From Bilabrum cf. latius (Eukaryota), in assembly GCA_965178125.1 (NCBI GenBank), contig OZ237763.1, positions 434,001-498,000 of the forward strand: a stretch of DNA of 64,000 nucleotides. Reading direction: 5' to 3'. The translations under genes and the position numbers were made by a program. Within the stretch, counting starts at the first letter, position 1. Each line of letters opens with the position of its first letter. This document shows, in pieces, positions 29,901 through 64,000 of the stretch. Under the pieces are notes generated by a model, which made no database searches, was not told where the DNA came from, and worked only from the letters and a program-made list of their open reading frames with translations.

Positions 29901-31592
29901 ACGACATCTGACGCATACCCAAAACTTCGATGGGATACTGAAAGGACGTCAGAAAGCGCTTCAAGCGCCAGTGCACAGTCCCTACTTAGTCCTAGGTCTC
30001 CGATGTGCCGCAAATTTTGCAGCGGCGAGAGCGAGGCTGAGGTGCGCGTTGTGTCCGGCCAGCTTCAAGCCTCTGGTAGAGCAGGTTCATACCTTTAGTG
30101 GCCCATCTGGTCTCCGGACGCGAACCGAAAGAGAGGTGATTGCATGGAAGCGAAGGGAGATTTGTTGAAAGCCGTCCGGGAATGGTTGCTAGCTTGTGTA
30201 GTAGATACGAATGCTAGCACTGGGTCAAGTGCCACCGACCCTACGGAAGCGCTTGCTATTCCTCCCGTGGCAGAAGCAACAGTGTCAGGCACTGGTCGAA
30301 AAGCAGATCCGCGAGCAGAACCGCACGCAAAGTCGCGGGTGATGCCCTGCGAGGTCGAGGTGGAGGTCGTCGACCATAATCGAGGAGCTGGAATTATCTT
30401 TCTGGCTTGCTCCATCGCTGAGTCCTCGGGCCGATTTCCAGTGATAGTGTCAGCTCCAGCATGGTATTGGGGCGATCGCCCATCCCTTTCCTGTCTGTTC
30501 TCACCGCAAGCTGCGGCTATCGCGCGATCCCTCCGAGGTCCCGAAGGAGAGCAGCTGCCTCGCGTAAGCCCAGACTGTCTTGTCCTCAAGCACTGCGCGG
30601 ATGAGATGGCGCTTGGCAACCTTAGGACGGTGTCAGATGCATTGGTTTCAGATGAACAACTCAAGCGAGTCCATGACGAGCTGCTTGCGATCAATCTAGG
30701 TCCAGAGACCCGGCCTCACACTCTAGCACCACTCAAGGGTGCATGGCTTCGATTGCGATCAGCAGCTAAGGCGGTCTTCAAGCGATCTGGTCTTTGCCTG
30801 CGACATATTGGCCTGATACAAGACATGGAGCGACGGCATAACCTCGAACCAGTGCCGCTGGAGACTGTTCTAGCTTGCTGCCTGCCGCAGATTGAATCCA
30901 CCTCCGGAGCGGCGCTTGCAAGATCGATGCGGCAGGCGAGTAGGCTAGTGACGTCTCTGCAGTAGCAGGAGCTTGTGTGCATGGTTTGTCTAGTTGCTCG
31001 TGCGTTTGGGTCGAAGACGGTCGATCTCAGCGATGCGCTGCTACCACGCGCCCTTGGGACGCAGCACCCCTACCGTGTCATAGGGTCAGAGGCAACTGCC
31101 ATGGCCTCAGCGGCTGGTTCGGATAGTCCCAGTGCACGCTTGTTGCCAGAGTGTGCTGCTTGGGACGTAATGCTGCGAAATTGCGGGCGTTTGAGCGAAT
31201 ATGCGTTGCAGCCACGTGATCCCATGGCTGGATCATCATTCGCTCCGGCAGATATTGCTGGTGTTGAACAAGCCATGTCGCGTGGTCATGATCGCTTCAG
31301 TGGTGACATCGACGGGCTCATAGATAATGTGAAATAGCTAGCCACGGAGCTAGCTTGTGCTTAGCGCAGCGGAAATATGAAGCTCGAGAGCGATATGCTG
31401 ATACAGATCGGAGCAGCTTGCGAGATGCATCGCGACTTGAGGCCGCTCGGCTTGCGGGCCATGCTGCGATTCGCCAGCATGTGCTTGAACACCGGTCAGT
31501 CTGGGGCGATGCTCCTAGTTAGTAGGTACATGGAGAGGCTTGGCCCCGATTTTCGTGCGATTGCAACGACCGCGAAAATGTTGCCGGCATAA
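26946..31592 (+). CDS. Hypothetical protein ~1,548 aa (N-terminal part possibly a helical repeat)
   Basis: ORF pieces at 26946, 27303, 27570, 28569, 29622, 30144, 30975, 31377 share one frame with ~13 in-frame TAGs (including TAGTAG at 29355-29360) and no TAA/TGA until TAA at 31590. No family recognised. Confidence 0.7.
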
Positions 31593-32852: not shown

Positions 32853-33121
32853 TTATAGGTCGCGCTGGCGTTCGAGGCTGACTCCTACTCGTGTTGCATG
32901 GCCCACAGAGACCAGGCGCTCTCGTTCAGAGGCACGCCCGCATCGTTGGCCTGCACCAACCGGCCCACAAACTCCTCCCAGCTGCTGGCGTACAGCGTGC
33001 CCGCGATCCCGGCCCACTGCCGCTGGGCCTACGACTGCAGCATGGCCCCATGCAGAGCCTCCCAGCCCTGAATCACCAGCTGCCGGGCGTCGCTCGGGAC
33101 GTTCTGGTCCTGCAGGCCATA
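32853..33121 (-). pseudogene. NAGLU: Alpha-N-acetylglucosaminidase (GH89) C-terminal fragment
   Basis: Hand translation ARQLVIQGW...MLQS*AQRQWAGIAGTLYASSWEEFVGRLVQANDAGVPLNESAW...HE*E resembles the NAGLU C-terminal domain (LDYANKQ.AGL...Y..RW..F). Absent from the ORF track because of TAGs. Confidence 0.65.
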
Positions 33122-33703: not shown

Positions 33704-36700
33704 TCAGACACTCTGGCGAACATCATTGACCTGCCGGCGCTGTTTCCACAAAGCTTCAGCAAGGCTGGTTGAATCGAATTTGCCGGCTGCCATGCTAGCA
33801 GTTCCAAGGCCAAGCTCGCGCGCAAGCTCATCGAGGACAGTACTCAGCGCCAACTAAGATTCGTGTGCCTCTTCTTCTGTTTCGCTCAGCAGAACTCGCC
33901 TCCTGGCCAGATACAGCCGAGCATCGGCGAATAGCATGTCATGCAGGTCAGCCCCGTAGATCACATCCATGTTCTCTTGTTGCGGAATTGCATTGGGCTT
34001 CCTGCCGGGCCGATTTCCCCCCTGCTCTGCATGGCCGGCCAGCTTTCGCACAGGGTCACTCACAGGCTTGCTAGTGATGATAAGTCGGTGCATGACCACA
34101 TTACCCGGGGTTTGGTGCTCGCCAAGCAATTTGCAGTACCTTTGATGGACATCGACCTACGTATCCCGGCCAAGAATCTTCTTAAGATCGCTAGCACCGA
34201 CGACTTGGGATTGTGAGTAGCCAGCCTTCACCTGAATCCGAATGACGTGAAAGATCTGCTTGGCAGCATTCTCGGGACTTGGGTTGCTTCGCAGCACCAC
34301 GACGAGATCAGAGCCGAACTAGTCCGGAAGCTCCTTGAAAATTTGACCGAATGCCGAGAACTGCCTGATTGCAACCCCAAGTCGACGCTTCTTGCGATCA
34401 GAGCCGCTATCCCTAAGCTCTCCCAAGCGAAGCTCTTGATCGGGCATGGACGGATTACTCCGATCCCAAGTCAGCTCCAACACCCCAGGTTTAGAGGAGT
34501 ACACGTCTCTGGGCAAAGAAGGCAGGCGGCCCTTGTCCAGTACCTTGGACTTGAAGTTGCGCCGCAAAGACTCGGCGATTACCAATTCGTAGTCCTCACC
34601 GAAGTCACCCGTCGGAAGATCAAGTGCCTGTTGCTCCCGAACCGTCAAGAAGATGTCTCGGGTGAGATCGATCTGCAGGGCTACTCGTGCGTATGCCAGA
34701 TTAGGGAACTGTACGCACCCCGAGCCCAGCTGCGGTTTGATTTGATTGAACTTCTGTTCCTCAGGAGAGTGGTACATCAACCACTAGTCATCGTGCCAGT
34801 TACGCAGCAGAACATCAAGCCCATCTTCGTACTTCAGACGATCTGAGGCGACCTGATCTGGCGGCAGCACTTCTTTGCCGACCTGTTCCAAATAGAACTT
34901 GACAGTGGACAAAGATACTAGCGGCATGACCTGGAAAGGGTTATCGAGGTCGAGTATCGCTTGCTTGCTTCCTGCATCACCTGCGAGAGAAGCTCGCGAG
35001 AGAGCCACTCCAAACCTGCTGAAAAGCGACTTGCGGTCCGACATCGCTCTAATGTACGATCTGAACTTGACACTCGTCCCCTGGAGCGCCCCCAGGCTCC
35101 TTGCAATTTCCCCGTTCAGCATGTATGCTCGCACAACCCGGTCATTGGCGGATTTCGCGGAGGCCAGTACTTCGTTGTCTTGCAGGTGCCTCTCAGCAAC
35201 TTCCAGGGTGATCCTGCCAACCGGGGCACTATTGGTATCCAGTGCATTCTGAACCTATGAATCAGGCTAGAGTGAGCGCACAGCGTGTTCCAAGCTGGGC
35301 TGAACATAGTACCCAGCCTGGTGCCACCACTGACCAAGCTTTAAGCCACCCCGCTTGCGCAAGCAGAATGCCAAGGCTAGAACTGCATCAGCTGCTGTCA
35401 CTACGCGGCGTTCAAATGGCGCACCTTGCTGCTATTCAGAAACGTCGTCAGGTTCCTGATCATTTAAGAGAGGTTGCCGAAGCAGCATGAGGTGCAGTTC
35501 CGGTTCAGAGTACACATTGGGCATTGCGTTGACGAGAAACTTGTCGTCCTGAAGCACCTCGCGCCCTTCAACTGGCCCATACACTTCTTTAGCCAGGCCC
35601 TTCTACGAGCCAGTCAAGAAGACCGTGGGCCTGCGCTACTCAATATTTATCATGTCGGCCATGATCGTCCAGAACTAGGATACCATTTCGCTGTAGTGCA
35701 AGTCCCTGGGACGTTCATCAGGCATCCGCACCTTTTGAGCTTCGTCAATGGCCAGCACAACGTGGATGTTGTACTCCGACAGCCAGTCTCCCATGAGCTG
35801 AGGAGTGAGCTAGTTGATTGTCCTGGCCCAGTCGGGCGGACTGCTGGCGTTTATGATCCCTGCTTTGGCAAGGCCGGCGGCAATCAACGCAACTGGGCTG
35901 GCATATCTCAAGTCACCGATATTACCAGTAGGGTCCTTGACGTAGATACCGACATGGGTAACGCTGGTTTGCGAGGTCGTTTTCTGGTGCGAATCCATAG
36001 ATGGCTCTCCCTAGTATTCAAGTGCCCAACGCACGAGCGCCTTTCCAAAGATCACATTACGCATCAGCTAGGACTTGCCGTATCCTCTGAAGCCGGTTGT
36101 CACACCGCCACGCATGACAGATGACCCGAAAGTTGTGGTCGCGAACGCTTCCTTCAAAAAGACGTCCAACCAAAACTCACGCTCAGACCCACACCTTGCG
36201 TCCACGATAGGAAGAACTGGTGCATCCGCAAATCCGTCGAAGCTGCTCACAGCAACAAGTGCCTCTCCAATCAGCAGAAGCGAATCTCGGACCGCTGCTA
36301 CCAGTGAGCTGCCACCTGCATCTGCTGCACTGGCGATGCGGTTCCTCACAGCAGTCTCCAGGTCGGGTCCCTTGAAATCGCCCTTGATTTCAAACTTTAA
36401 GTCTTTGGCGCGTTCGCTGAGTCGTGGAACCCAGCTGCAGTCAGGCACATCCAAGTAGTGCGCGTCCTTGAGGTAGTCCTTCGGGGGGCGGCCTTCCGCG
36501 ATATCGGCAAGGGCCTCCTCTCGAGCTCTCCTTGTTGCTGCTGGCAATTCCTTCAGCACGTCTTGAACGGTAGCAATAAGCGACTGTATGCCACGATCAT
36601 AGTCTTGGGACAAAATGAAGTCCTAGAACTTGGTATTCAAGACAATGTGTAGCAGACCACGATCAACAGCGCGCAACTCAGCGGCTGGCGCAAACCAGGG

Positions 36701-37180
36701 CTCTTCCTCGCTGACCGCTCGGCCGTTTGGTGCTTTATCTGCCCCTTCTTCGAATGCACCAAGCACGATGCTTGGCGATATATGCCGGTCTTGCTTCAGT
36801 TCTTGCACGAGAGAAGGTGGTACACCTTCAAGTACGGTTGCAAGCTCATCGAGCACGGAGCTCTGTACCGTCACGTCAGCACAAAACTAGACACTGGGAC
36901 TGGATTGGATATTTCTACTCATCCTACGGATTTTACTCGTCATTATCACAAAGTTTTGAAGACGTAGGGAAGACTCGAACGCTGAAATCCAAGTCTGCTT
37001 TGCTTGCACGGCAGCTGCTCGCCCCCCAGATTGGGAGTCTTGAACTGTCGAGCATAACCTTAGCGATTGCCATGCCAATGGTTTATGTGTTGCAGCTATC
37101 GAGGCGGGGGCGCGCACCCTATTCGTGCTTGCCCGAACGCGCAAAGCCTGCGAAATGTTATGGTCAGCACTCTTCTGCAT
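33704..37180 (-). CDS. P-loop NTPase + restriction-endonuclease-like protein (Crinkler/CR-type), copy A; start uncertain
   Basis: Pieces starting at 36874, 36613, 35998, 35134, 34780, 34129 lie in one frame joined across TAGs; TGA at 33704-33706. Walker A GFRGYGKS, Walker B hhhhDE, C-terminal GSDL...IRIQVK (D...QxK). Confidence 0.75.
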
Positions 37181-37530
37181 TAGTTTCCAGCGTCGTTGAC
37201 AACATGAGCACTCAAGTACTAGCGTGCGTCTTACCTACCGAAATTGAAGCCCGGCGAAGACGTGCGAACTGCTCTATCTCCCTTGAAAACGAAACTTGTT
37301 CAGTGCTTTGCTGATTGACAGCACCTGCCGCTGGGAAGCCCGCATATCTCAAGACTCCTAGCTGCAAGCTTCTATAAGCTGTTACAATAATATGGACGGA
37401 AGAAATGCACGATAATCCCGGGGTAGGACGCAGGCGTGCTACAAGGAAGTCTGTGAAGCATGGTCCATCGTTCAATCCCATTATATCTGATCTGCACGAT
37501 TTAAAGTGTTCGACCCAAGGGACCCAGGGA

Positions 37531-38527: not shown

Positions 38528-38555
38528 TGCCACGCCGTTTGCAGCGGATCATGAT

Positions 38556-41500
38556 TCATAGAACCACAGAACTAGTAACATCACTGGCAAGCTTGCGCTT
38601 CTCCCAGTGGGCTTCAGCAAGGTTGAGTGAATCGAAGGTGCCGGCCTTCTCACTTGCGATTCCGAGAGCAAGCTCTCCAAAAACCTCTTTGAGGACAGCC
38701 CGCAACACCTCCTACGCTTCACGCGCTTCTTCTTCAGTATTGCTCAGCAGGACCCGTCTCCTAGCCAAGTACAGTCGCGCATCGGCGAATAGCAACTCCG
38801 GCAGGTCATCTCCGTAGATCACATCCATGTTGTCTTGCTGAGGGATTGGCTCGGGCTTCCTGCCAGGGCGCTGCTTCCCCCCCCTCGCTACAGAAATGGG
38901 GTTTCTCGTCTCCGGGTGGCTGGCCAGATTTTGCACAGGGTCATTAACAGGCTCGCTAGTGATGAGGAGTCGGTGCATGACCACGTTGCCAGAGGTCTAC
39001 TCCTCGCCAAGTAACTTGCAGTACAACCGGTGAGCCTCTGCCTGCGCATCCTGGCAAAGCAATTTCTTCAATTTGCTAGCGCCAAGTACTGGTTTTTGCG
39101 AGAACCCGGCTTTGACCTGGATACGAACCACGTGATAGATAGGCTTCTAGGGGCTGGCCTTGGTTCTCTGTTTCAGCACCATGGCGAGATCAGCTCCGAA
39201 TCGGTCTGGAAGCTCCTTGAATAGTTGACCAAAGGCCAAGAATTGCTAGGCCGAGGCCACCTGCGGACTTCCACTGTCAACGATTCCCCCACCGTCAATG
39301 CGACCCAACTGAAGCTCTTGATCGGGCGCGGACGGATTACTTCGATCCCAAGTCAGCTCCAACACCCCAGGTTTAGAGGAGTACACGTCTCTGGGCAAAA
39401 AAGGCAGGCGGCCCTTGTCCAGTACCTTGGACTTGAAGTTGCGCCGCAAAGACTCGGCGATTACCAATTCGTAGTCCTCACCGTAGTCACCCGTCGGAAG
39501 ATCAAGTGCCTGTTGCTCCCGAACTGTCAAGAAGATGTCTCGGGTGAGATCGATCTGCAGGGCTACTCTTGCGTATGCCAGATTGGGCAGCTGCACATGC
39601 CCCGAGCCAAGCTGCGGCTCAATCTCGTTAAACTCCTGTTCTTCGGGAGAGTTGTATACTACCCACTAGTTATCGTGCCAACCTCGCAGCATAGCATCGA
39701 GCTAATCTTCATAATACTGACGATCTGACGCAACCCGATCTGGCGGGAGCAATTCGTTGCTTACCTCTTCCAAGTAGACCTTGACTGTAGACACAGACAC
39801 TCGTGGCATGGCTTGGAAAGGATCATCATAGTTGAGCATCGCTTGCTCGCTTGCAGAGTCTGCGGCAGAGGCTCGCACGAGCGCAACTGCAAACCTGCTG
39901 AAAAGCGTTTTGCGATCCATCATCGCCTTGACATAATTTTTGAAGTTAACGCTAGTCCCTCCAAGCTCCCCAAGGCTCCTTGCAAGTACCCCATTCAGCA
40001 AATACGCGCGAACGACCCGCTCGCGGGCAAATTTCGCAGCTTCAAGCACCCGGTGGTCTTGCAGGTACCTCTGAGCAATTTCGACCGTAATTCTGCCGAC
40101 CGGCGCACCCTTGGTATTCCGTGCGTCCTGAACCGATGACCCAGACTAGATTAAGCGCACAAGGTGTTTCAAACTTGGCTGCACAAGGTACCCAAGCTAG
40201 TGCCACCACTTCCCAGTCTTAAGGTCATCTCGCTTGCGCAGGTAGTACGTTAAGGCCAGAACTGCATCAGCCGCAGACACCGAAGGCCTTTTGAGCGGGG
40301 CGTTAAGTTGCTTGGGATAGACGCTGGCGGGTTGCTGTCTTTTTGGCTGCTAACGAAGCAGCATGAGGTGCAGTTCCGGTTCAGAATACGCATTTGGCAT
40401 TGCGTTGACGAGAAACTTGTCACCCTGTAGCACCCGGCGCCCATGCACCGGGCCATACACTTCTTTAGCCAGGCCCTTCTGGGAGCCGGTCAAGAAGACC
40501 GTGGGCTTGCCCTCCTGCATCCTCAACATGTCTTCCAGGATATTCCAGAACCTGCGGGCCATAGTACGGTAGTGCCAGTCCTCGGATCCTTCGGGTGGCA
40601 TCTGCACCTTTTCAGCTTCATCAATAGCCAGCGCAACATGGATGTTATGCTCTGAAAGCCAGCGTCCCATGGAGGTGGGGGTGAGCTCGTCTGGCATGGC
40701 CCATTTAGGCGGACTGTCGCCATCAATGAGCCCTAGCTTGGCCAGGCCAGCAGCTATCAACGCGACTGGGCTGGCATACCTCAAGTCACCCATATATCCG
40801 GTGGGGTCCTTGACGTAGATACCGACATGGGTCATGGTCGGTACCGAGCTCATCCTCGGGTGGGATGCAAGGCTTGCTGCGGACTTCGAACCCGAGGAAC
40901 TATCGCCCGATGGTGCAAGTGCCCAACGCACGAGCGCCTTGCCGAAAATCACGTTCTAAATAAGCTCAGACTTGCCGTATCCTTTGAATCCGGTTATCAC
41001 ACCGCCGCGCATAACTGAAGATGCCCCCAATGTGTCGGCCGTGAGAGATTCTGAGATGAACAAATCCAACCAACCCTCACGCTCAGACCCACACCTTGCG
41101 TCCACGATCGGTAAAATGTGGGCATCAGTACGACCAAGAACGCTATGCACTTTAACTAATGCCTCTCCAATCAGCAGAAGCGAATCTCGGACCGCTGCTA
41201 CCAGTGAGCTCCCTTCTGTATCTGCTGCACTGGCGATGCGGTTCCTCACAGCAGTCTCCAGGTCGGGTCCCTTGAAATCGCCCTTGATTTCAAACTTCAA
41301 GTCTTTGGCGCGTTCGCTGAGTCGTGGAACCCAGCTGCAGTCAGGCACATCCAAATAGTGCGCGTCCTTGAGGTAGTCCTTCGGGGGGCGGCCATCCGCG
41401 ATGTCGGCAAGGGCCTCCTCTCGAGCTCTCCTTGTTGCTGCTGGCAATTCCTTCAGCACGTCTTGAACGGCAGCAATAAGCGACTGTATGCCACGATCAT

Positions 41501-42044
41501 AGTCTTCGGACAAAATGAAGTCCTAGAACTTGGTATTCAAGACAATGTGTAGCAGACCAGGATCAACAGCGCGCAACTCAGCGGCTGGCGCAAACCAGGG
41601 CTCTTTCTCGCTGACCGCTCGGCCGTTTGGTGCTTTATCTGCCCCTTCTTCAAATGCACCAAGCACGATGCTTGGCGATATATGCCGGTCTTGCTTCAGT
41701 TCTTGCACGAGAGAAGGTGGTACACCTTCAAGTACGGTTGCAAGCTCATCGAGCACGGAGCTCTGTACCGTCACGTCAGCGCAAAACTAGACACTGGGAC
41801 TGGATCGGATATTTCTACTCATCCTACGGATTTTACTCGTCATTATCACAAAGTTTTGAAGGCGTAGGGAAGACTCGAACGCTGAAATCCAAGTCTGCTT
41901 TGCTTGCACGGCAGCTGCTCGCCCCCCAGATTGGGAGTCTTGAACTGTCGAGCATAACCTTAGCGATTGCCATGCCAATGGTTTATGTGTTGCAGCTATC
42001 GAGGCGGGGGCGCGCACCCTATTCGTGCTTGCCCGAAGGCGCAA
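38556..42044 (-). CDS. P-loop NTPase + restriction-endonuclease-like protein (Crinkler/CR-type), copy B; start uncertain
   Basis: Tandem paralog of copy A in one frame across TAGs to TGA 38556-38558. Walker A GFKGYGKS, Walker B VALAIDEA, GADL...VRIQVK. Confidence 0.75.
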
Positions 42045-43883: not shown

Positions 43884-45536
43884 TTACCCGTGACCGGACC
43901 CGCCCTCGCCCATAGGATTGGCCTACGCAAACCGGTCTCCACACGCGCGCCCTGCCTCCCCTGCCACAAGCTTAGACATCGACTCCTCTTTGGACTGCAG
44001 CGGAAGCCCATCTCCGCTACTGTACCTGCTACCGACCTTCACGCCAGGGCGCGCTGCAGCAGAGGCTGTTGCACCGCTGGCCTGAGAACCACTTTTCGCT
44101 GCAGCCACCGCCGCGGTCGATTTGACTGCACCACAGAGCAACACCGCGAGTCCAAATCCACCCACAGCTCCCACAGCAAGCCCTCCAACTGCCGCTCCTA
44201 CCACAACCCCTACCCCGTACTGGTCACTCGAGGACCCCTCACCGCCGCAACCAGCCCCATCCCCAGGATCCTCTGATAGACCACCCTGTGCTGCCCCCGG
44301 CGTGCTACTAGGCGACACGATCGGAGATGGCGATACCGCTAGGTCAGGACTGGCACTTGGCAATGACGTGGCTGCACTAGGGATCGCGCTGGTGCTCGGT
44401 GGCGCGCTGGGACTGGGTGTGGTCGAGATGCTCGGACTGCTTGTTGGGGATGCCGACGGTAATTGCTACGGGTCACCGGAGCAGTTTCTCTCCGGTACAC
44501 CCTCTGCCAACCCCCCGTTTGGAATGAAGTCCACAGCTACCGGGAAATGGTCCGAGACCCGCTGTACGAAGGCATAGTCGGTCAGGTTAAGCGCAACGTC
44601 AAATCGGTGCACCCGCGCGCTCGTCTGGTTCAGCCTGGGCAAGAGCGATTGACTGGCTACGATGCGATCGTACGCGCAGCTAGATCCCGTGGCCACATTA
44701 GTGTCCGCGTCATCACCAATAAGCCAGTGGTAGAGGTCGGTCCTGTTTCTCATGGCGATGCCCGGCCACTCGCTCTCGCGGACGTACGTGCAGTCTGCAT
44801 TGAAATCTCCGACGATTATGACGTTGCCGGATCCGTTGCTGCAGTGCACGCCTAGAGATCCATTTCGCATGATGTCTAGCGTCGGAGAAGATCTGCTATA
44901 GGGCTGCACTACGCTGTTTGTGCCGCCACCGGTGCTCGGACCAGTGCCGAAACCTTCGCCGTTCCACACCGTTGCCACCCAGCGTGCGAACTTTTCGAGC
45001 TGAACAATTTCTTCGACTACCAAATCTGGCTTCATGTGAATAGATATGAATGCAAACGAGTTTGACTCGTCTTCAAGCTCTGAGCCAGCTCCATCCAGAA
45101 CCCGAAAGCGAACCGCGAAGGGATGATACGTAAACTTGCTTGCTAGCTCTTCCGGTGGTTCGGTTGCATTTACGGCACGCAATATGTTCGATCGATAAAT
45201 AATAGCGTGCTGCTCCTTCCGCCCAGCTCCAGATCGTTTGCTTAGGAGCATTTCATACTCTCCACCGGTCGACGGTGTGCCGCCACTGCCGGCCGGCCCC
45301 GACAACGAATTGACGAGTGAAAGCAAGTCCTGCGGAGCCGATTGGTCAATATCCTACACTTCTTGAATTGCGATCAAGTCAAAGAGTCTGACCGTGTTTG
45401 CTAGCGCAGATAGCTGGTTGGGATCCCCAGCTAAAGTATCACCAAACTACTGCACGTTCCATGACGCTACCTTGACCGCACCAGAGGGAGCCACCATCAA
45501 AATAATCGCTATTAGAGTCGATTGATTGACCAACAT
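43884..45536 (-). CDS. DNase I-family endonuclease with signal peptide, Ser/Pro/Thr stalk and C-terminal TM anchor, ~550 aa
   Basis: ATG 45536 MLVNQSTLIAIILMVAPSGA; motifs VASWNVQ*FG, IAIQEV*D, ISIHMKP, IIVGDFNADC, CAYDRIV, VSDHFPV; TM GVGVVVGAAVGGLAVGAVGGFGLAVLLC; TAGs at 45447, 45354, 44466, 43923; TAA at 43884. Confidence 0.9.
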
Positions 45537-51902: not shown

Positions 51903-52279
51903 TAATTGTTGCTTCTGTCAATGTGCGGTTGATGTGACTGTCACCTGAGGCACGCTGGTCGTTTGGGTGAACTTTTTGAGTAACGTGACATCAGGCAGAA
52001 TCTCCGATCCTCGCGCGACTCTGGGTGGAGCTACGGCCACACCAACAGGTACCACGCCAGTGTCACGATGGCAATCGAGGCATAGCAATTATCGCAAAAT
52101 TGAAGCTCATACATCGGTTGGATCGTGAGACTGCACGCATATAGCAGCGCCCGTGCGAGTTCCGTACTGCGACTGTACGCTATACTCTCTGACGGGCCAT
52201 ATTCTTCGCCTCTCAGGCATCAAACAGTAGAGTTGCAGATCATTCAGATAGAGCATCACTGATTGGCGCAACTGTTGTG

Positions 52280-55200
52280 ATGAATTTGCGCAGATGTGTC
52301 CTCCCCTGTGCTTTTTCGATTGGCTGTGGCAGCCTGAGTTCCAGCTTGTCCTTGCTGGCCTTCATGTCCGTCCTAGTACAAATGGTTATGGCTATGTCTG
52401 CATCAGCACATATTTGTAGTTTGCCTTTCAATGTGTCTAGGTCGGTTGGAAGCTTGCAGGCTCGCGTTGACTGGCCGCCGTCCGGGGCACGCGCCGAAGC
52501 TCGACTGCCGCCCCTTGCACAGAATGGATCTCGCAGCGGGACACTGTGGGTGGGAATAGTATCACAGAATACTCCAAGCGCCGCGGGTTAGCCTGCATGG
52601 AGCTGCAGCTAGACTCCAACGAAGAGCTACGATGCCTCAGTACGTGACGGCTCATGTCTCAAGTTTATCGCGAAGGCCATTATCTTGGACAACCCGGGGG
52701 ATGAAAGCTCGTCGATACAATCTAATGATACGCTGAAGCCGTTTTGGAGCAGTAGACAAACAACAGCGGCTATCGAGGCGTTCGTACTGGCTCCGAAAAC
52801 TGAGCTGGCGCGACCGTGGCTGCCACGCCCATCCTTTGTCGATGATGCACAGCAGCCAAATGCATTGCTCAACTACACCTCTGGTTGGGCTAGAAATCCA
52901 TCGCTGGCATCCGACATTCGCCTGGCTACAGAAGCTACGATGCATTCGGGCGAGAGCGACCACAACAATGCTACGAGCGTAGCCCTATCGTTGCCTCTTT
53001 CCTTGCTGGACTTTGTTTCAAATGAGGCGACTTGGGATTGGCGACAAGGCTTACGAATTGGCTATGAGTGCATAAAGCCGGCTGGTGGCATCCAGTCTTT
53101 CGGGGAGGCGGTAGCTTTCCTTGCTTCCAGCAATGGATCCCTCGGAGAAGGAAGCGACTTCGCCTTACCAACATGGACTGCTTAGAAGGCTGTTTCTATG
53201 AATCCAACTGTCGGGTAGCTGCTACGTCCACCAGTACACAGCGTTCCGCGTGTCAAAGTCGGCAACCAAAGCAGATCGAATGCTGATCACGACGCTCTCG
53301 CCGTGATCTCGGCCGGATCCAGGCACGCCTGTGGTGTAGTTGCCGGAACAGGCGATGTGGTGTGCTGGGGAGATCACTCGGGCGGGGCTACTGGAATAGA
53401 ACCATCTTCCCGGGTCGAGTATGCCGGTCCAAGAGACATCGGCAGCGTGGCCCTAGGCCCTGGCATGCGGGCCAGGGACGTTTGCGCGGGGCTCGATTCC
53501 ACTTGCGTTGCCCTTGACAACGGTGGTGTCACATGCTTTGGGAGAGGGTCTGACTCGTGGATGGGCCTAAGAAGTGAGGCCTCCAACGAAGCACCGTACC
53601 GTCGTCCAGTAGTCCACTTCGAGTCACCGGTGGAGAGACTATCCTGCTGGGCCTATCACGGTGTGGCAGTCCTGAGGGATGGAACGATGAGAACGTGGGG
53701 TGGCAGTGGACCCTACGGCTAGCTGGGGCGCGGAGGTGTCGTGAGAAAGGACGACACGTTCACGCTTGCAGACCCAGTCACACCTGACCTCGACTACGCG
53801 GAGCAGGGCGGGGTGCTTGATGCGTGTGCGATGCTCTATGCCACCGCCGTGCTGTTCAAGAACGGGAGAGTCAAGACTTTTGGGGAGATGCGACAGGGGA
53901 GCATTATCCCGGACTATGACGATGACTTGATCGGCCCGCCTGACACCAAGGTCATCACTGCTCCCCGCTTGCTGGACCCCGTGAACCTACTCAACGGGTC
54001 TTTGGTGGAAAGCATCTCTTGTGGGGCTTTTCATGTGTGTGCAGTCCTTCGTGATGGTGCTGGGAGCATCTGCTGGGGCCTCCCGAACCCTGTAGGTTAG
54101 ACGTGCCGTGGCGGAGCTTGCAACAGCTACTAGCCCGAGACGCTATCGGCCATTGAGTTTCCCCCGGACATGGGCCGCATTGTTCAGGCAGATGCATCGC
54201 CTGAGAATTCATGCTTCCTCGATGACCATGGGTAGATTCTGTGCACAGGTGAGACTGTGACCGGGGTGGCGATGGCAGCTGAGGGCCTATCACCGCTGAC
54301 ACAGGATGCGAACGACAGCCTGATACTCGACCTGGGCGAGCCAGCATAGGACCTGGCCTGTGGCACAAGGTTCTGCTGCGCGATATTGCAGAGTTTAAGA
54401 GTGCGCTGCTGGGGGCAAGGCACCGAAGGTCAGCTCGGCAACGGTCAGCGTACCTTGTACGGGGACGATGAGCCCATTTCTGCGTCTCCTCCGGTTCCGA
54501 TCGGGCAGGAGTTTGCAGTAGCTCAAGTCGACGTCGGGGGTGTGCACGTGTGTGCGCTTGGTATGCAGGGTCAGATAAGGTGCTTTGGATCAGTCAGTGA
54601 CTACGCATCTGGTTTCATGCCAAACGATGACGAGGGTATCGGTGTCGTCTTAGGCGACGACGAGCACGCCAGGCGTGGCAGGCCTGTGGAACTACCTCCA
54701 GACAAAGAAGCAGTGCAGGTGTGTGCTGCCGCGGGATATGGATGTGCCGTTGTGCGCCCCATATCATCGCTTAGTCGGAGTATGACTAGGCATGACGATG
54801 ACTGGGTGTCGCTGCGGTACGGTCAAGCTCACATAACGGGGTTAGAAGCGTCTCAGTCAGATTAGAGCGAAAACGATCTGTACTGCTGGGGCACGTTGCT
54901 TCAGGTTGGGAACGGAGACTTCACTGCCGTTGATCCCAGACCCTCCAAGGTTCCGCTCCCAACAGGTAACATCTCGTGGCTGGATTGCGCAGAAAGGTAG
55001 GTCTGTGTGACGGGTTCCAATGGCACGTTCTGCTTCGGGTACTTCTGGTACCCAAATCCGGATTTTGTGACGCAGACAGCCGACTTTGTGTTTAGCGCAA
55101 TTGCTCCTGCAATTCCACAGTCTGTGCATGAGAACATTCCTGCAGTCTGGGTGGATGTGGCAGTTGGGGCGTCCCATACAGTAATGATCTCGGACGTGGG

Positions 55201-58200
55201 GCACGTGTACTTTTTTGGGACGATTCCAACCGGATTTGACACGCCAGGTCCCCGCATATATGTTGTTGCTGACGTCAACCGCCTGGAGATGCCAGAGGGG
55301 AGGAGGGCAGTAAGGGCGTGCTCTGGTGTGTCGCACTCGTGCGTTATTTTGGAGGGGGGAAAGCTGCTGTGCTTTGGCAGCAATGATATGGGGCAGCTTG
55401 GTTTTGGAGTCGCTGGCGCCTTCATGCCTGGAGCACCGCTCTATAGCGTACCCTTTGTCGATTTCGGGGATCGTTCGGCGTTTGCAGTCGACGTATCATG
55501 TGGATCGTCTTTCACGTGCGCGATAGTTATTGTAGAAGGAACTCGTCGGGAGATTCGTTGCTTCGGATCGAACGACAATGGCCAGCTTGGCCGATCTACG
55601 GCCACTAAATCGGATAGCATTGATACAACGGTTGCTTCAAATCACGTTAGCCTGGGTGGTAGAATACCAGAGTAGATCTCATGTGGCCTCACAACAGCTT
55701 GTGTCGTTCTGTCTGGAGGTGCGGTCACATGCTGGGGAACAGCAGTGTCGGTGTAGCCAGAGCGCTTGCTGGGTAGGGGGCAACCTCTCCCAGAGGGTCG
55801 TTGGGCGGCGAGCACGAGGTCTTCGCTGGTGCAGTTCGGTCGCCGACGACCTGCTGTTGTGCAGCTGCCCAGTGGCGAAAGGTCCTAGGATTCAGAATGC
55901 AGCGACTTGGAGCAAGACGTCGCATTCTTGAGGGGGACTGGTTGGCTTCTTTCTTCGCCCTCCGGTGCCAGCACTGTTGCAGTTGTCTCTGGTCCTGGCC
56001 CGTGTAACCCTGCATCCGCGTCTCTGGCATTCGGCACGGCCGAGGCGTTTCAATTGAACGGATGGCAGCTACGAGAAGGGATTTCTGGGGGATTGCAGGC
56101 ACTGTTGGGGTCATTTGGTTTTGATGAAGTGTCTAAGACGTATCTTGGGACGTTTGTTGGACGCCAGTTGATCGTTCCAGGAACATCGTAGATCGTCTCA
56201 GAACGGAGCCAGCAGTGCGACACTTTGGACCAGCAGGTCTATGCGGATTCTTTCTCGAGCCTCTTAGATAGCATTGCTTTAAGCGTCTAGGCTTTGACGA
56301 GCGATGGGCTTGTGGCCACTGCAGGCGGTTCCAGACTGAAGCTGTCGTCGCCCATTTTGGAGCTGCTGCAGCACCTGCGGCCAAACGCCGTACCCGAAGG
56401 TGTACAGTTGCAAGTTCGATCTGCACCCGCAACAGATTGCAACTGGAATGCACAAGACGGCATCGTGTGCATGAGCCCGCCTGGGTATGGCGAGTCAAGT
56501 CCGACCACAGCATGTCTACCTGGGCTTGCACGACGTTCTGGGCACTTGCTAGGACCAGCTGCCCAAAATAGCAGCAGCGCTGCGTGCACTCACGCAGGGC
56601 ATCTATCCTTCCTTGCGCCGTAGGTGAGGCGCATATCACCTTCTGCAGGCTTGATTCCGTGCCCATTCAATCGCAGTGCATCAGGCTGCGGAGATATTGA
56701 GCAGGCTGAGCTCGGGGGATTCCTTATTCGACTAGTAGGGTCTGGTTTCGGTCCACTGCGAGAAAAAGATGGCTTTCTGGTTTTGATTGGTGACCAAGCT
56801 TGCATGGACGCGCGGGTAGAGTCAGATCTGGAAATTGCTTGCGTGCTTCCACATTTGCTTGGTGACGATTGGCCGGTTACGGTGCTTGTAGGTGGGCAGA
56901 CCAGCGAAGGTCCCACGGTTTCCTTTGCCACCCCTGTAGTGCAAGCCGTGAGTCCCAGCGCCTTGATGCCTTCGAGTTTCGGTGGAAAGATAGCTGTGGT
57001 GATGTAGACACGCGGTCTTGCACCGACTTTATTGCAGTCTGTAGAGATTGGGGGCTCTGCATGCGACTCGGTGGCATTGGGTCCCGAAGGTTTGCTTCGA
57101 TGTGATCTCCATCTACCCGAGTCATTCAATGGGACGGATGGGTCATCAATAATAGTGCGTTCTGCGATGCGTGCTGGTGCAAGTGGCTGGAATAGCACCG
57201 TTGTATCCGTTTCTGCCCCCGAGCTGCTCGAGCTTGCGCCTCCTCCCTCGATCTTTGAAATCATCACGTTCGGGGTCCCGACGTCTGGTATGCTGCGGAC
57301 TCCCATTGGAGTCGCTGGGGCGGGACTTGGATTTAGCGGAGACGATATTCAAGCTGTTCTTGTCAACAAAATACCCTTGAACTCCTCGGCTTGGCTTTGG
57401 AGAAGCCCGAATCGGGTAGAGCTACTGGCGGTGCCGCCAGGAGTGGGGACAGGTATCGTGCGGATCGTCACCTCTCAAGGACTGCAGTCAAACGAGGACT
57501 TATTTGAGTATGATAGCGCGCAAGTTGAGCTCATTTCGCCCGACTACATGCTAGCTGGGCAGCAGAACGCAACTGTGGCTGTGTGTGGGAACGGGCTGCC
57601 TCGAGAAACTTCAAGCATAGTCTCACTCGTGATCGGAGGCACGGACTGCCTTGAAGCAAACGGGCGCATCTAGATCACGTCTCTGCTTGGTTCGGCAAGG
57701 GATTTCTCCGAGAGCTGTGTTGAGTGTTAGGGTTTCGACGCGCCAACTCTGTGGGCTGAGCCAGACGATGTTCGCATCCGACTGGCTGACTCTGCTTCAA
57801 GTGCCAAACACGCCACCAGTGAGTTCCTTGATACTACCACGCATGCGAAGAGCAATTTATGGATTAACCAGACTGGTCGGTTTAGGGGCGAGCCGGCGCC
57901 AGTCATTAAGTCGTTGTCCTATGCTTCAGCGACGGTGGATGGCGGCGAGATAGTGCAAGTGTTCGGCTCCGGGTACGGAAGGTCGGAGCGGGACATCGCG
58001 AGAGTAAGGATATGCGATAGGTGGATAAATGCAGTCGTAGACAGATCTACTGGAATTGCCAACAATGTCACGACCGTTTGGTTGTCACCTGGTGAGATGG
58101 CCGTGGCGCTACCGCCGGGAGTCGTGTCCTGCGAGGTCCTGATCGAGTCAAGCGCCGGTCTCTAGGCACGATCCGGATCCAATGTAGTACGCCAGTCACC

Positions 58201-61200
58201 GTCAATCGAAGTGGTACGGCCGTCTTACATACTAGCGGGTGATGATCTATCCGATCCTACTTCTAATCTGATCGCATGCGGCAGCGGTCTGTTGCCTCTC
58301 TCGTGGCAAGATTCTGGAAATTTGGCGCACGACCTAAGTCAAAACTCGTCGGTTGTATCGATGAGAGTGCTAGGGATCGAGTGCTTGAGTATAGCTTCGA
58401 TTAACAGTAGCTGTATTCGCTGCGATGGCCTATCTGACCGTGTTCCAAGCGACATCCCTTCCGCGGCATCTACAAGTGCCATGCTGGTGCGATCTGGAGA
58501 CAGGACTGCGGGGGTATCTCCCCAGGTGTTTTCAGCCGTGTCTCGTCCCAGCGTTGCAACATTAAGCCCACCCTAGCTTCCGAAGGACCTAGACGAGGCC
58601 GTATTGTACCTAGGCTCCGGGTTTGGAGAGACTTCTGACGACCTCAGTGCCCTTTACATGCTGGCCGATGACGCAGGCAGCGGCGCGCTGACTCGCCTAG
58701 CAGCGAACTTGGCAATCGAGAGCTCTGAATCACAGTCGTTTAGTGAAATCATGCAACAATTGAGGCAGCCCAGTCAACTGACGCGTTGCACTTCCTCAAG
58801 GCATGTATCCCCGTCTCTTGCGGAGTGCGTACTGGATTTGAACCACCCGCTCAGGCTACTGGCGCAGATGTACGCTGTCGGTAATTTGACCGCGCTCTTG
58901 CCACCGTTCGCTCGAGCCGTCGCATGCAACAAGCACGGAGTATGCTCTGTGCCAAGTGAAGCCGTAGTACAATTGTCGCAAGCATCCGTGTCATTCCCGC
59001 CCCTGTTCGTGCCTTGGGACGTTCGCGTGCAGAGGTCTGTGGGCCAGTCCGCTGTGGATGTGCAGTGGTGGTATCCAACGGAGGCAGCAGAGTCAGCTGC
59101 ACTTGGACAGGTTCCTAGCGCCTCGGCATTGCACACGACGGCCAAGTATTTCGTTGTGGAGTCGATAGAGTTGAAGCAGAGCTCACGCAATGCGTCAGAG
59201 TTCTATACCGTGGCGGGCAGTAGGCAAACTGTGGCAGTATTCGCAAGATCGCGGACTCTGACAGCCAAAGGTACTGTTGATTTGCAGCACCCAGACGTAC
59301 TGACTGCGCTAGGTTCGCCTGAATACTGCAGTCTCGATCCAACTGTATCAGCTGATGCGCTAGGCAGCGTTCGGCGTATTGCGATTGCGGATTTGCAGTC
59401 GTCAGAGCCAGGCCCATGGCAGCTCGGTGAGCACTTGTCAGCTGCAAGGCAATCAGCCTTGCGTCATTGGGTACAGGATGGCGTGCAGCTGCATCGCATT
59501 GCAGCGCCTCTTGCCAGTGATGGAGCGTTTGCAATCCGAATTTCAGCCACTGACTAGTCCGGATACGTGCTGTAGCATGGGCCTTGGAGCCGCCCTAGTT
59601 TGCCACAGTGCGCGCAGTCTCAGTTTCTGGACGCAGTCGCTTGGAATGATAGCTAGTCAACGGCACCCTGCAGTGGTCCTGTTCTGCTGCCATTTGACGT
59701 AGATGATGGAACGGATCAACAAACGCGAGGCACCTCGTCGTCTGTTGTGGTGACAACAGACACTGGCAGCTCCCCTGCCGGTAAAAGCAATCAAGTCGAT
59801 AGCAGTTTGCAGTGTTTCTAGTGTCCCTCAGACCAGGCAGACTGCAGTGGCAGAGCCAGGAATCAGATCGAACCACTACCAGGGTACTGGAGGGTACCAT
59901 GGGCTGCAGTCCCGGACCTTGCATTTGCCACGTGCCCACACCCCTGGCGCTGCGCTCCACAGCCGCTCCATAGCGTCGCAAACGGTGAAGCTAGTGGCGT
60001 ATTGCCTGGCCAGTCTTCGCGTCCAGTGCAGGAAACGGTGCAGGCAAGCAATAGACCAGTGGACAGCCTTGATACACTGGAGGCCATCCTGTCTTAGCCA
60101 GATTTCCTTTCATTTGCAGCCGCTTTCGAAGTCTAGCTGGCGCAGAACGAGTCTGACAACTACGCGAAACCGCTCGTGTGTGCCGAGGGGTACACTGGTG
60201 TGCTATGCGAATCCTGTGCGGCGGGATACGTCAGGTTGCTGTTTGGATCGTGCGGACCGTGCCCTAGCCGGTCCACTTCTATCGGCATCGCCTTCGTGGT
60301 CTGCGTGGCCATGCTGGCCTTCTACGGCGCACTAGTCGCGCGTTCCCACTGCAATGCGGTGCAGCGCACTCGGCGACAGGACGAGGTGGCTGCAAATTTC
60401 AAGATCTCAAGTGCACCCGTAATCTTGACGGAATCGTATACCCCTGCAAAGTCGAGCGGAGTTGCGAGCGAAGTTGCGGGAGCCAGGGGCACGGTCCACC
60501 AGAATGTCAGCAGCACAAGTGGCTCGACTAGAATCAACACTCGGTCACGCAAAGAGACCCCAGAAGAAGCCCTCCGTCGTCTGAGGTCCTCCTCGATCCT
60601 CAAGGTGATCCTCGGTCACCTGCAGATGCTAGCAATGTGCGCCATTGTGGATGCAGGGTGGCCAAACCTGCTCGAGTACGCCATTGTCGGTGCGACCACA
60701 GCGTCTTCTGTGGGGGCCTAGGTCGTCGCCCCTATGTGTCTGCTGCCTCAGGAGGACACCCGTTTGGGGCTAGACGGCCAAATGGAGGAAGGGATCTGGT
60801 TCGGCCGCAGCAGTCTTTACTACAGTAGTGCAGCTATCCTGGTACTGCCAGTGGTGCTGCTAGGTGCCGTGGTTGTAGGCGCTGCGGTGCTGCAAGCCGT
60901 GTCGGGCTGCAGGCAGTTGGGCTTTCGGACTTGCTGCAATGCATGGACGGTTCCAGTCCGCCTTTGCTTGCAGAATTGCGGGGTGCTTTAGAATGGGGGT
61001 CATCAAATGGTCCCAATCCCGATCCGTGATCGCGCAATCATTGCAGGCGCCTCGCAAGCTAGAAGGCTGCAAGCTATTGCCGAGCACTATGCCGTGGAAG
61101 AGAAAGACGTGGCAGTTGTACCTGCAGACCGCGCCAGTGGAGATGAAAACAGGGATGTTGTCGCTTTCGGCCAGCGAGAAAGGGACGGCTCAATCTCTGT

Positions 61201-62752
61201 TGCTATGGGAGACGAGATGGTGGCAGTGGCCGACGGGGTGCAAGATCACATCGATTATGACGAGAATCGGCTGGCATCACTTGCGAATGAAGAAAGCGTT
61301 CAAGACTCGTCGAGTAAGCAGCAATCACGGCGCACCATTGCCGCTCGGGTTCGGGTTCCCGATTCGCTGAACGAATTTCAACCATCAGTTCCCCTGCGCT
61401 TCTGCTACGCCTCTATCACTGTTGCCTTTCTGGCGTACAGTACCATGACGACAGCTGCTCTTCGTCTCCAGGCCTGTGTATCTGTAGGAGCCGACCGCAG
61501 CGAGCTGGCTCGCTTCGAAGGCTCGTCTGTTTAGCACGATGGGTCCGAAGGCAGCCAGCTCAGAATGCTGTTCGAGCTGGACGTACGCTGCGACGATAGC
61601 AAGTCGACGAGTTTGCGATAGGCCATGTCTATTCCTGTGCTGCTGCTGGTCTCCCTCGGTCTGCCTCTCGTGGCTGTACTATCCATGGTGTTCACCGGGA
61701 TCTAGCAGGTCCCGCGCTGGCATTGTGTCATGGATCATGAGCCTGTTGGGCGACGCTCGGCGGCGATCTATCGATACTTGTGGGGTTTCCTGACTGTCGG
61801 TATGCGGTCCGGTTTCGACTCGTGGGAGGCCGTAAACATGACCCGCAAAGCACTGGCAGGCTGTGCTGTAGTTTTCTTGGCTCCCAGCGGGCCCTTCATG
61901 CAGCTCGCAGCAATGCTAGGTGTCACAGTCAGTTTCTTGCTCTTGTAGGTAGGGGCTGCTCCCTACGACCACGCTTTGCTGAATCGTTTGCAGCTGGGGT
62001 GCTAGGGTCTGTTGGTTGTCACCCTTCTGGTCGCGCTGGCAGGCGTGGCTGACGCTGACAGTGGTTTGGTGCAGGTGCTGGGTGGCTTCACAACCACGGC
62101 ACACGTCGCTGTGGTTCTATTTGGTCTGTATGAGGTGGCGCTCATCGGCAGCATGGAGTTGGGGCTTTCAAACTCCTTGAGAACCTGCTAGGTTTTGAGC
62201 GTGTGCAGCTCGTGCTACAAATGTTCTCTGTGCGGCGATGTTCCCGACGAATGCAAGAATCAAGAGGCAAGACAGTCTGATGAAACGTAGCGTGTGCCTG
62301 GTCATCGAAACGGTCTTGGTGGTCCGAGACGACGTGCGGGAAACAGAGGGGGTGATGCTGGTGAAAGCGACTAGATTCAGTCAATGACTTCTAATCCTGT
62401 GGCTGGTGGAAGGTACAGAAATCCGCTGAGATTGGGCGAAACGACAGTATCTCCTATAGTTGCGGTCTCATCAGGGCACGGACAGGATGCTCGCACTTCG
62501 CGGGCTTCCGAACACAGTAGATCCGCTCGTGAGTGGGGTTCCGCTGGAGATATGGCCGCAAGCCAGACGGGTGAAACCGTGAACTCACTCTCCGCTTCTA
62601 TTGGTCCACTCGACCCGCCCACTGCGTTAGGGAGCCGTGCAGATCGCGTCAGACTTGTAAACAGTGCTCGTGTGGGGTCACTGGCGCCAGACTCAAAGGG
62701 CGTGAACCCAATGATCCGCGCTCTGGGCAAGTCCGCAGACCGTGAGTGTTGA
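52280..62752 (+). CDS. Large surface protein ~3,490 aa: signal peptide, RCC1/BLIP-II beta-propeller repeats, IPT/TIG repeats, Cys-rich segment, multi-pass (~9) TM module
   Basis: All main ORF-track pieces from 52277 to 62384 lie in frame 2. About 38 in-frame TAGs and no TAA/TGA until TGA 62750. Motifs CWG...GQLG, ISCG..H.C, GSGFG, CAEGYTGVLCESC, WGFL..G.....WEAVNMTRK. Confidence 0.88.
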
Positions 62753-64000
62753 CTGCTGAGGCCCTCAAGTGGCCCCTGCCAGAGCCTGTGGAACTCTCTA
62801 GGCACTGGGACTCCATGAGCTCTGCAGCGGCCTGGGTCCATCCGTGCGGACACATGTGTATTTTTCAGATAAGTCAAATGTATAATTTTCACAGCCACCT
62901 GAGTATATTTCAGCAGGCTAGATTGCCGCTCAAGTTTTTTTGTGACCTCGCAACTTCCTCGTCCGTATGTGTGATCCGATCCCTGATCCGGTTCACTCGT
63001 CACCCACACGTCACCCGATCCCTGATCCGCTCCGGCGGACACACCGGGCAGGGCATCCCAACTGTGTGGCACGCTCTCTTTTGACGACCCACGTGAGATT
63101 GCGTGCCCCGCGACTTATTCAGGACATCTGGCGCGAGCAACAGCCACCTGCCCAGAGTGGAGGCAGCGCTGGTGCAGCCAAGGATGCACAGCCTCACATG
63201 GCAAGCGGGGAGCAATCGGAGATATCCTACCAGCTCAACATGCACGCGCCACCAGCGGCCATGCCTCGGGAAGGCTACAAGGCGACACCTCCATCACTCG
63301 ACGCTCATGATACCGAGTCGACGGTGCGCGTGGTCCAAGTCGATGACAATGCCCTCAGTCCGCTCGTCATCCCTCGGGCAGAATGCGGCAACACACGCAC
63401 CAACCCACGCCGCCCGGCTGGACGCAGACAAGCTGGCCCAGTCGGGACGCGTGCACTTGCTGGCCCAGTCGAGACGCGTGGGCTTGCTGGCGGCAGCTGA
63501 AGTCTTTGCGTGCAGCGGCAAGGACCACAGGGTGGTGATCGATGAGTTCTTGACCCGGTTTCCCGATCGGGGCCGCAGGGATCTGCCTCATCCGCAGGGG
63601 CCGCAACCCCGCTCGGTTCGCACGGGCTGCCAGACCAGAACTTGCGCAGCAGCGCCCTCGCGGGCTCCTTGCCCACAAAGCATCATCCTCCGCACGTTGC
63701 TGCCGCCAGGTAGTCGTTCTTGCCGCAAACTCCACCCGTGGGCCAAAGCCCCACGATGCCAGTGGAGAAGGTTCGCTGTGCCGTACTAGGTCGTTGTGGT
63801 TCGTTCACTCTTACGGGACTCAAGCACGCCATTACGAGCCGAGTCTAGGCATGGATGAACCCCTCGCCCTACAGGACCATAGTACTTCCATGGAGGCTCG
63901 CAAGCGCGTCGCGCTAGCAACGGCTCACAGGCTACGCTCCATGGAGAACGAGCTTGATCGCATGCAACGCAGGATTCGGACGCCTCAGCAGCTCCTGCTG

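Follow-up and report, generated by a model that had tools for sequence, protein, structure and literature searches.

Results

The RCC1/TIG gene and its transcript

The DNA analysed here is a stretch of 64,000 nt from Bilabrum cf. latius (contig OZ237763.1, positions 434,001-498,000; GC content 53-68%), which is referred to throughout as the window. Its genes carry numerous TAG codons in frame, and these most likely encode glutamine. The codons are best documented in one gene, termed the RCC1/TIG gene below, which has the following parts:

52280..62752, + strand: coding sequence of an RCC1 / IPT-TIG / multi-pass membrane protein, about 3490 amino acids (aa), with 38 in-frame TAG codons
52125..52216, + strand: intron in the 5' untranslated region (UTR), 92 nt, of the GT..AG type (ends GTGAGA..TCTCAG; joint 52124->52217 in sequencing run X5)
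62753..62891, + strand: 3' UTR; poly(A) is added at about 62891, behind which the X5 contig has a loose end, AAAAAAAA

The gene starts at ATG 52280, which is the first ATG in frame downstream of an in-frame TGA, and stops at TGA 62750-62752. An RCC1-repeat propeller (PF00415 / PF13540 / PF25390) is recognised in the product by Pfam matches above the curated cut-offs: WD40_RLD at 2e-60 (205.5 bits, cut-off 150), RCC1_2 at 1.2e-32 (111.2 bits, cut-off 22) and RCC1 at 7.7e-16 (58.9 bits, cut-off 21.7); TIG is matched at 1.7e-09. In frames where TAG is read as sense the Pfam domains run across the TAG codons.

Contigs of public sequencing runs were compared with positions 43801-63800 of the window. 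A single X5 contig of 10,755 nt spans 52217-62891 and does not differ from the window in any letter. The RNA label of runs X5 and X7 is a guess on record; X5 was taken as RNA-derived because it has GT..AG joints and an A-tail. From the identity of the contig, the splice joint and the A-run together it follows that all 38 TAGs are present in the mature mRNA, neither spliced out nor edited. UAG therefore stands in frame inside a mature, spliced and polyadenylated mRNA.

The 5' UTR exon of this gene also contains a short upstream open reading frame (ORF) at 52068-52118, which begins with the ATG at 52068, has TAG in frame five codons later and reaches a TGA at codon 16 of the contig frame.

Stop codons in the reading frames of the window

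If TAG counts as a sense codon, the window contains ORFs of 5172, 3491, 1722, 1548, 1213, 1162, 597 and 550 aa, whereas under table 11 its longest stop-to-stop frame is 1408 codons and the frames are otherwise short. Apart from the RCC1/TIG gene and two paralogs that are listed further on, these are:

1081..16599, + strand: giant gene, 5172 codons, 10 in-frame TAG, TGA stop; C-type lectin, cadherin and TIG domains and a multi-pass C-terminus
21586..26754, + strand: PP2C-domain gene, 1722 codons, 8 TAG
26946..31592, + strand: ORF of 1548 codons, 13 TAG, of no known family
43884..45536, - strand: DNase I-like gene, 550 codons, 4 TAG
47921-49714, - strand: ORF of 597 aa, with TAG read as sense

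At least five cadherin stretches were identified in the giant product, besides its C-type lectin domain, TIG and an ephrin-receptor-like repeat. Among the remaining ORFs of the window are some with PP2C, DNase I-like, GHL15 and NAGLU domains.

The coding frames of the eight ORFs (15,455 codons) contain 104 TAG, no TAA and no TGA, as against 53 TAA, 138 TAG and 264 TGA in frame 2 and 61, 109 and 332 respectively in frame 3. For the ORF at 52277-62752 alone the coding frame has 38 TAG, 0 TAA and 0 TGA, and frames 2/3 have 16/13 TAA, 52/35 TAG and 60/87 TGA. It is clear from this comparison of frames that TAG is not avoided in frame while TAA and TGA are excluded. Furthermore, the in-frame TAGs of the eight ORFs are evenly distributed along the genes, with no depletion toward the 3' ends. 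Given the off-frame density of TAA and TGA, the chance of a 3491-codon frame free of both is ln P ~ -89.

TAA, a codon on which the first-pass annotation considered below was silent, behaves differently from TAG. Reading TAA as sense instead of TAG leaves the ORF lengths unchanged; the long ORFs are hardly extended and none fuse. There are 148 CAA codons in the eight ORFs, so that about 37 TAA would be expected if TAA and CAA were used in the proportion of TAG and CAG, and none was observed. This zero is partly built in, as TAA served as an ORF boundary, and its independent part is the lack of ORF fusion on TAA read-through. With TAA not a sense codon, the change is TAG-only, of the “code 15” type.

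Most ORFs end in TGA, and no ORF in the window or on the metagenome contig described below (L001) needs TAG as a stop. For one gene, that ending at TGA 62750-62752, UGA as terminator is backed by a transcript end. Each TAA-ended ORF has a TGA 9-30 codons downstream, and no transcript end places a stop at TAA. No tRNA genes were found in the window by ARAGORN, nor any match there to an Rfam family, and the eRF1 gene lies outside it.

TAG sites in orthologs of the RCC1/TIG protein

An exhaustive HMMER search with residues 2480-3300 of the RCC1/TIG protein gave 272 relatives, including P0034 (297 aa, 85% identity) and P0035 (162 aa, 69%); P0186 (231 aa, 72%) was added through a word-based search. 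These three proteins share one contig of 11,900 nt and are pieces of one ortholog, fragmented by standard-code gene calling; P0034 terminates exactly before the window TAG at 62189. P0185, co-listed in one cluster of relatives, proved unrelated. A search of protein clusters led only to TRP, DUF7630 and Ephrin_rec_like clusters that extend across eukaryotes; few of their members carry a taxon label, most often Chlorophyta. A second query led to NAGLU clusters, whose taxa were uninformative.

Through its three ORF pieces this close ortholog could be compared at 9 of the 38 TAG sites, given here by residue number with the ortholog's residue and the identity of the flanks:

TAG 1799: L, flanks 7/10
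TAG 1818: A, flanks 10/10
TAG 2815: Q, flanks 10/10
TAG 2905: E, flanks 3/10
TAG 3086: L, flanks 6/10
TAG 3115: H, flanks 6/10
TAG 3143: Q, flanks 8/10
TAG 3224: Q, flanks 10/10
TAG 3243: Q, flanks 10/10

Glutamine is thus the commonest partner (Q 4, L 2, and H, E and A once each), arginine is found at none of the nine, and the four sites whose flanks are fully identical have Q, Q, Q and A.

A distant ortholog, 42% identical over 1265 columns, lies on contig L001 in an ORF of 1926 codons that has 24 in-frame TAG, no TAA, no TGA and 20 CAA, and a TGA stop. Counted in both directions, the partners of TAG in this alignment are R 6, Q 5, D 3, S 2, A 2, V 2 and one each of L, G, E, P, F and I, in addition to two TAG-TAG pairs. 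Four sites can be followed through both orthologs:

60719..60721, + strand: TAG residue 2815; Q in the close ortholog in fully identical flanks, CGC in the distant ortholog
61703..61705, + strand: TAG residue 3143; Q in the close and CAG in the distant ortholog
61946..61948, + strand: TAG residue 3224 in LLLxV..PY (x = TAG); Q in the close and CAG in the distant ortholog; family column H 59, Q 46 of 130, informative
62003..62005, + strand: TAG residue 3243; Q in the close ortholog (10/10 flanks), TAG in the distant one; wider family column Leu-rich

Downstream of the distant ortholog, at 6059-7726 and 7923-9005 (+) of L001, lie ORFs of 555 and 360 aa with 6 and 3 in-frame TAG, both ended by TGA, whose products are Cys-rich and membrane-like and belong to no Pfam family. 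TGA ends all three L001 ORFs.

Repeat motifs and profile columns

A first-pass annotation, made from the window sequence, had proposed that TAG is glutamine on the strength of motifs repeated within the proteins themselves. The TAGs it relied on are in frame, those at 53720, 55673, 58163 and 61946 in the ORF 52277-62752 (+) and that at 9649 in the ORF 1081-16599 (+). They lie in the peptides GSGPYGxLGRG, ExISCG, SSAGLxA, FLLLxVGAAPY and TAGGxLVVIRG, as had been described, and the parallels drawn to them (GTEGQLG, NDMGQLG, NDNGQLG, TSQGLQS, AYLLQLRYRPF and TWGGQPFALRG) are all present. As evidence for glutamine these parallels are of uneven value: the RCC1 GQLG and LLLQ positions fall in columns that favour Q, while the other three of the five are uninformative or weak. 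The decisive support for glutamine comes instead from the orthologs, which lay outside that annotation's view.

The alignment to RCC1 and TIG models that had been suggested as a check was carried out with purpose-made profiles. A direct phmmer whole-domain tally of the residues of RCC1 homologs at TAG columns was too thin (0-13 residues per column), and a repeat hidden Markov model (HMM) was used instead, made from 324 repeats of 31 database homologs with the window protein left out; the TIG-repeat HMM was likewise made without recoded proteins. Apart from that at 61946, the quoted sites fare as follows:

53720..53722, + strand: TAG at the x of the GxLG motif in an RCC1 repeat; an informative column (Q 0.45, E 0.08, R 0.08)
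55673..55675, + strand: TAG residue 1133, before ISCG; a weak column (A.16, S.14, Q.14)
58163..58165, + strand: TAG residue 1963 in SSAGLxA; outside the TIG model, its sole support being CAG in the distant ortholog at a local identity of 2/12
9649..9651, + strand: TAG following GG within one of the giant gene's TIG repeats; a flat column (T.12, A.11, S.09, Q.07)

The check bears out the RCC1 GxLG position, and adds little at 55673; since the TIG-repeat columns under the TAGs are flat, the TIG parallels carry no weight. Summed over 16 profile columns (3 RCC1, 4 TIG and 9 from the C-terminal family), the log-odds are highest for glutamine among the 20 residues, at +8.3, followed by T at +5.0 and S at +2.5, with E at -0.9, R at -1.5, Y at -7.5 and L at -9.1.

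Paralogs and codon likelihoods

Two tandem genes on the same strand encode related proteins of about 1200 aa and allow TAG to be compared at the level of codons:

33704..37345, - strand: paralog A, 1213 codons, 17 TAG; of no recognised family
38556..42044, - strand: paralog B, 1162 codons, 12 TAG; 75% identity with paralog A

The partners of TAG between them are Q 5, R 4, E 3, S 2 and one each of K, G and A, in addition to five TAG-TAG pairs. No homolog of the family at near lengths was found among 5.8 billion proteins, and no locus in metagenome contigs; a sub-threshold AAA_22 match is the only domain signal. At the DNA level (33753-37467 against 38611-42372) the 5' 1.46 kb are 93% identical and the 3' 2.26 kb 76%, an unevenness that suggests partial gene conversion or a mosaic duplication.

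The three alignments (close ortholog, L001 and paralogs) were combined in a summed likelihood using the conditional probabilities of BLOSUM90, BLOSUM45 and BLOSUM80 respectively. The log-likelihood for TAG is highest for Q (-129.7), followed by R (-148.0), E (-150.2), K (-150.4), S (-163.5), L (-194.2) and Y (-197.9); with empirical substitution tables the values are -131.6 for Q and -153.9 for R. When the method was applied as a control to the sense codons, with same-codon pairs omitted, it returned the correct residue for 55 of 59. The TAG columns were not enriched in leucine, tyrosine or glutamate, the outcome that the first-pass annotation had named as telling against its proposal: the 52 informative partners include Q 14, R 10, E 5, S 4 and L 3, and neither Y nor W occurs among them.

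The codons that TAG exchanges with point in the same direction. Its partner profile (R.23, Q.23, E.09) resembles those of CAG (R.17, Q.16, E.14) and CAA (Q.24, R.16, E.11), and is unlike those of GAG (S.18, D.16, Q.13), CGG (R.42), TTG and TAC. In the paralog and L001 codon alignments TAG<->CAG makes up 0.18 and 0.19 of the non-identical TAG sites; the synonymous pair TTG<->CTG makes up 0.14 in both, and eight non-synonymous first-base T<->C pairs 0-0.10. No TAG<->TAC/TAT, TAG<->TTG or TAG<->TGG pairs were found in these two alignments. Glutamine is therefore supported as the maximum-likelihood reading of TAG across the close ortholog, the distant ortholog and paralogs, and the profile columns.

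Neighbouring genes and repeats

Two pieces of a NAGLU gene are present:

37872-38552, - strand: NAGLU TIM-barrel piece, profile positions 123-332, E 8e-55, GC content at third codon positions (GC3) 0.87
32762-33175, - strand: NAGLU_C piece, profile positions 170-245, 29.3 bits (cut-off 25), weak

No further NAGLU exons were found in three frames of 31.6-34.0, 37.3-38.6 and 42.0-47.9 kb. The two pieces flank paralog A, and the TIM piece begins 3 nt after the stop of paralog B; with no other part of it in the regions scanned, the NAGLU gene looks to have been broken up by paralog-bearing segments.

The DNase I-like gene (43884-45536, -) is bracketed by a 706-bp direct repeat, 100% identical, at 42695-43400 and 45621-46326. 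It may be an assembly artefact, or else represent LTR-like ends or a dispersed repeat. The copy at 45621-46175 has raised depth in all four runs compared, including two that hold little else of the stretch. Two of the TAGs in the DNase I-like gene align to T/S and R/K in solved DNases, which is compatible with Q and not decisive. Short dispersed repeats also occur between genes, at 31836-32052 / 43740-43979 (86% identity) and 37603-37863 / 43517-43777 (96%).

Transcript contigs show five more joints of GT..AG type (GT..AG or CT..AC), 90-140 nt, at 49606-50090 (-) and 50385-50913 (+), from which it follows that the 597-aa ORF and the GHL15 gene have upstream exons beyond the ORF list. In run X7 the contig depth is greatest, by a wide margin, over the gene at 47.9-49.6 kb, and one X7 contig (depth 140 of 340) is without 7 nt at 49350 in the 597-aa ORF, a difference that may reflect a frameshifting allele, a paralog or an assembly variant. 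At 63116-63597 the contigs of three runs agree with each other, yet they show 24-26 substitutions and 43 gap letters against the window over about 480 nt, in contrast to the identical 10.7-kb gene next to it; a diverged allele or a repeat copy could account for the difference.

Discussion

The most probable interpretation, to which we give a probability of about 0.88, is that the window belongs to the nuclear DNA of a GC-rich eukaryote in which UAG is translated as glutamine in the cytoplasm and UGA terminates genes; UAA, never a sense codon, would be a stop or not be used at all. That TAG is a sense codon is shown by a mature mRNA, and the evolutionary partners of TAG are those of a glutamine codon.

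Several results weigh against glutamine. The BLOSUM classifier calls GAA and GAG “Q”, so that a fairer test was needed between Q and E. This was made with empirical partner profiles over the 43 paralog and L001 columns, and gave Q -105.9, R -110.3 and E -115.7; here the margin of Q over R is only 4.4 nats, and of the 59 control codons the classifier assigns 46 correctly. At TAG 1818 the residue of the close ortholog is A in spite of 10/10 flanks, and at 1799 and 3086 it is L. Columns of the C-terminal family are Leu-rich at 3115 (L 49/101) and 3243 (L 51/81), although at the latter site Q is found in the close ortholog, within an identical context, and TAG in the distant one. The NAGLU pieces each supply a further discordant codon. 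In the TIM piece a TAG aligns with Ser of human NAGLU, and the other is the following:

33029..33031, - strand: TAG at a Tyr position in the weak NAGLU_C fragment, a counter-example

This codon aligns with the Tyr of a DY.N.QW motif in a bacterial NAGLU chain (E 0.4) and stands three residues before a shared RQW.G. As only two NAGLU pieces turned up in the parts searched, the gene is fragmentary, and the codon may be a plain TAC/TAT-to-TAG mutation. Finally, most of the 104 TAGs lie in unconserved sequence, outside the reach of residue tests.

These points bear chiefly on whether TAG, as a sense codon, could specify another residue: arginine, glutamate or lysine, the statistical runners-up, or leucine, serine or tyrosine, to which a reassignment has been reported or is plausible in other organisms. 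R equals Q among the partners in the paralogs and distant ortholog (10 each of 43), the BLOSUM method confuses E with Q, and single sites favour leucine (the two Leu-rich columns), tyrosine and serine (one TAG each in NAGLU_C and NAGLU). Set against this, the summed log-likelihoods fall short of that of Q by 18.3 nats for R, 20.5 for E, 20.7 for K, 33.8 for S, 64.5 for L and 68.2 for Y. None of the nine sites compared in the close ortholog has R and four have Q, which occupies three of the four with identical flanks; the profile log-odds (R -1.5, E -0.9, L -9.1, Y -7.5) contrast with +8.3 for Q; Y and W are absent from the 52 partners, as are pairs of TAG with TAC/TAT, TTG or TGG; and the Tyr-site codon may, as said, be a mutation in a broken gene. 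We consider another residue improbable. A context-dependent code as in some ciliates, with UAG glutamine within genes and a terminator at some gene ends, is quite improbable as well: a transcript fixes a single gene end (TGA 62750, poly(A) 62891), which leaves room for it, but no ORF of the window or L001 requires a TAG stop and the TAGs are not depleted near 3' ends.

Alternatively, TAG and TAA could both be glutamine, as in table 6, with TAA rare through high GC. UGA ends most ORFs and all three of those on L001, and the TAA-ended ORFs have their TGA within 9-30 codons, as such a code would allow. On the other hand, there is no TAA in 15,455 + 1,926 codons, against 148 + 20 CAA and 104 + 24 TAG, where about 37 TAA were expected, and read-through of TAA hardly lengthens the long ORFs. 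A code of this kind is therefore very improbable here. That TAG is still a stop, and that the frames reflect pseudogenes, chance, unspliced introns, edited sites or occasional read-through, has in its favour only the prior for the standard code, together with the repeats and the fragmentary NAGLU gene in the window. Neither the open 3491-codon frame (ln P ~ -89) nor the Pfam domains that cross TAGs agree with it; the mature polyadenylated contig retains all 38 TAGs unspliced and unedited, both orthologs stay open across TAGs of their own, and 38 serial read-throughs would give no protein. We regard its probability as negligible.

With UAG read as glutamine, the mechanism would be twofold: glutamine would be delivered at UAG by a tRNA-Gln whose anticodon is CUA, or by a decoder equivalent to it, and eRF1 would have lost recognition of UAG while keeping that of UGA and probably UAA; both steps are proposed because they are established for other UAG/UAR -> Gln lineages. 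Each independent UAG-only case constrains the evolution of eRF1 and suppressor tRNAs. There is also a practical consequence, in that standard-code calling shatters genes: the close ortholog of the 3491-aa protein is present in a public collection as pieces of 297, 231 and 162 aa. TAG = Gln must accordingly be applied whenever this organism or its relatives are annotated, binned or studied by proteomics. The finding would be an ordinary one if the code of the organism is already on record.

Reassignment of UAG decoupled from UAA is reported, in the accounts given in PMC5304391 and PMC11687900, as documented in only a handful of eukaryotes. No GC-rich lineage with a TAG-only change to glutamine was found in the literature searched, whose supplementary files may list more lineages. 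It is possible, though we hold this only tentatively and think it somewhat doubtful, that the window and the two ortholog sources represent an unrecognised GC-rich lineage in which UAG came to encode glutamine independently of fornicates and ciliates, with UGA as main terminator and with public gene calls that cut its genes at every TAG.

One close counterpart is the nuclear code of the fornicate Iotanema spirale, described in PMC5304391 as reassigning UAG alone to glutamine with UAA as primary terminator. As in the window, UAG is Gln and UAA is outside the sense set, and the assignment was inferred from transcripts and homolog columns; unlike Iotanema, the window ORFs mostly end in UGA and the GC content is 53-68%. 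The phyllopharyngean ciliates Hartmannula sinica and Trochilia petrani, as presented in PMC11687900, also read UAG as glutamine, with UAA a fixed preferred stop. They share the TAG-only change, which that account traces to the mining of public assemblies, whereas the genes of the window are very long and GC-rich, with GT..AG introns of about 90 nt, and UGA prevails. Codes that assign both UAA and UAG to glutamine (table 6 type) are attributed in PMC2984419 and PMC8271138 to Dasycladales, Cladophorales, Trentepohliales, hexamitin diplomonads and many ciliates. These have UAG as glutamine and UGA as a working stop in common with the window. The difference lies in TAA, of which the window ORFs have none in frame where about 37 would be expected.

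UAG alone is also reassigned, with UAA kept as a stop, in systems that read it as leucine (Rhizaria sp. exLh and uncultured phyllopharyngeans, according to PMC5304391 and PMC11687900) or serine (Scotinosphaera, according to PMC8271138); leucine and serine fit the TAGs of the window 64.5 and 33.8 nats worse than glutamine. Codes with UAG as leucine, serine or tyrosine were rejected for the window, as L, S and Y account for 3, 4 and 0 of the 52 partners, while single columns favour L or Y. The “genetic code 15” of TAG-recoded bacteriophages, in which PMC9523058 gives TAG as glutamine and TAA/TGA as stops, has the same codon table, but the window is cellular eukaryotic DNA with spliceosomal introns, poly(A) and cadherin, RCC1, PP2C and NAGLU genes. 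The TAG-only change to glutamine is thus a rare and already described kind of code variant, with glutamine the most likely meaning of TAG here.

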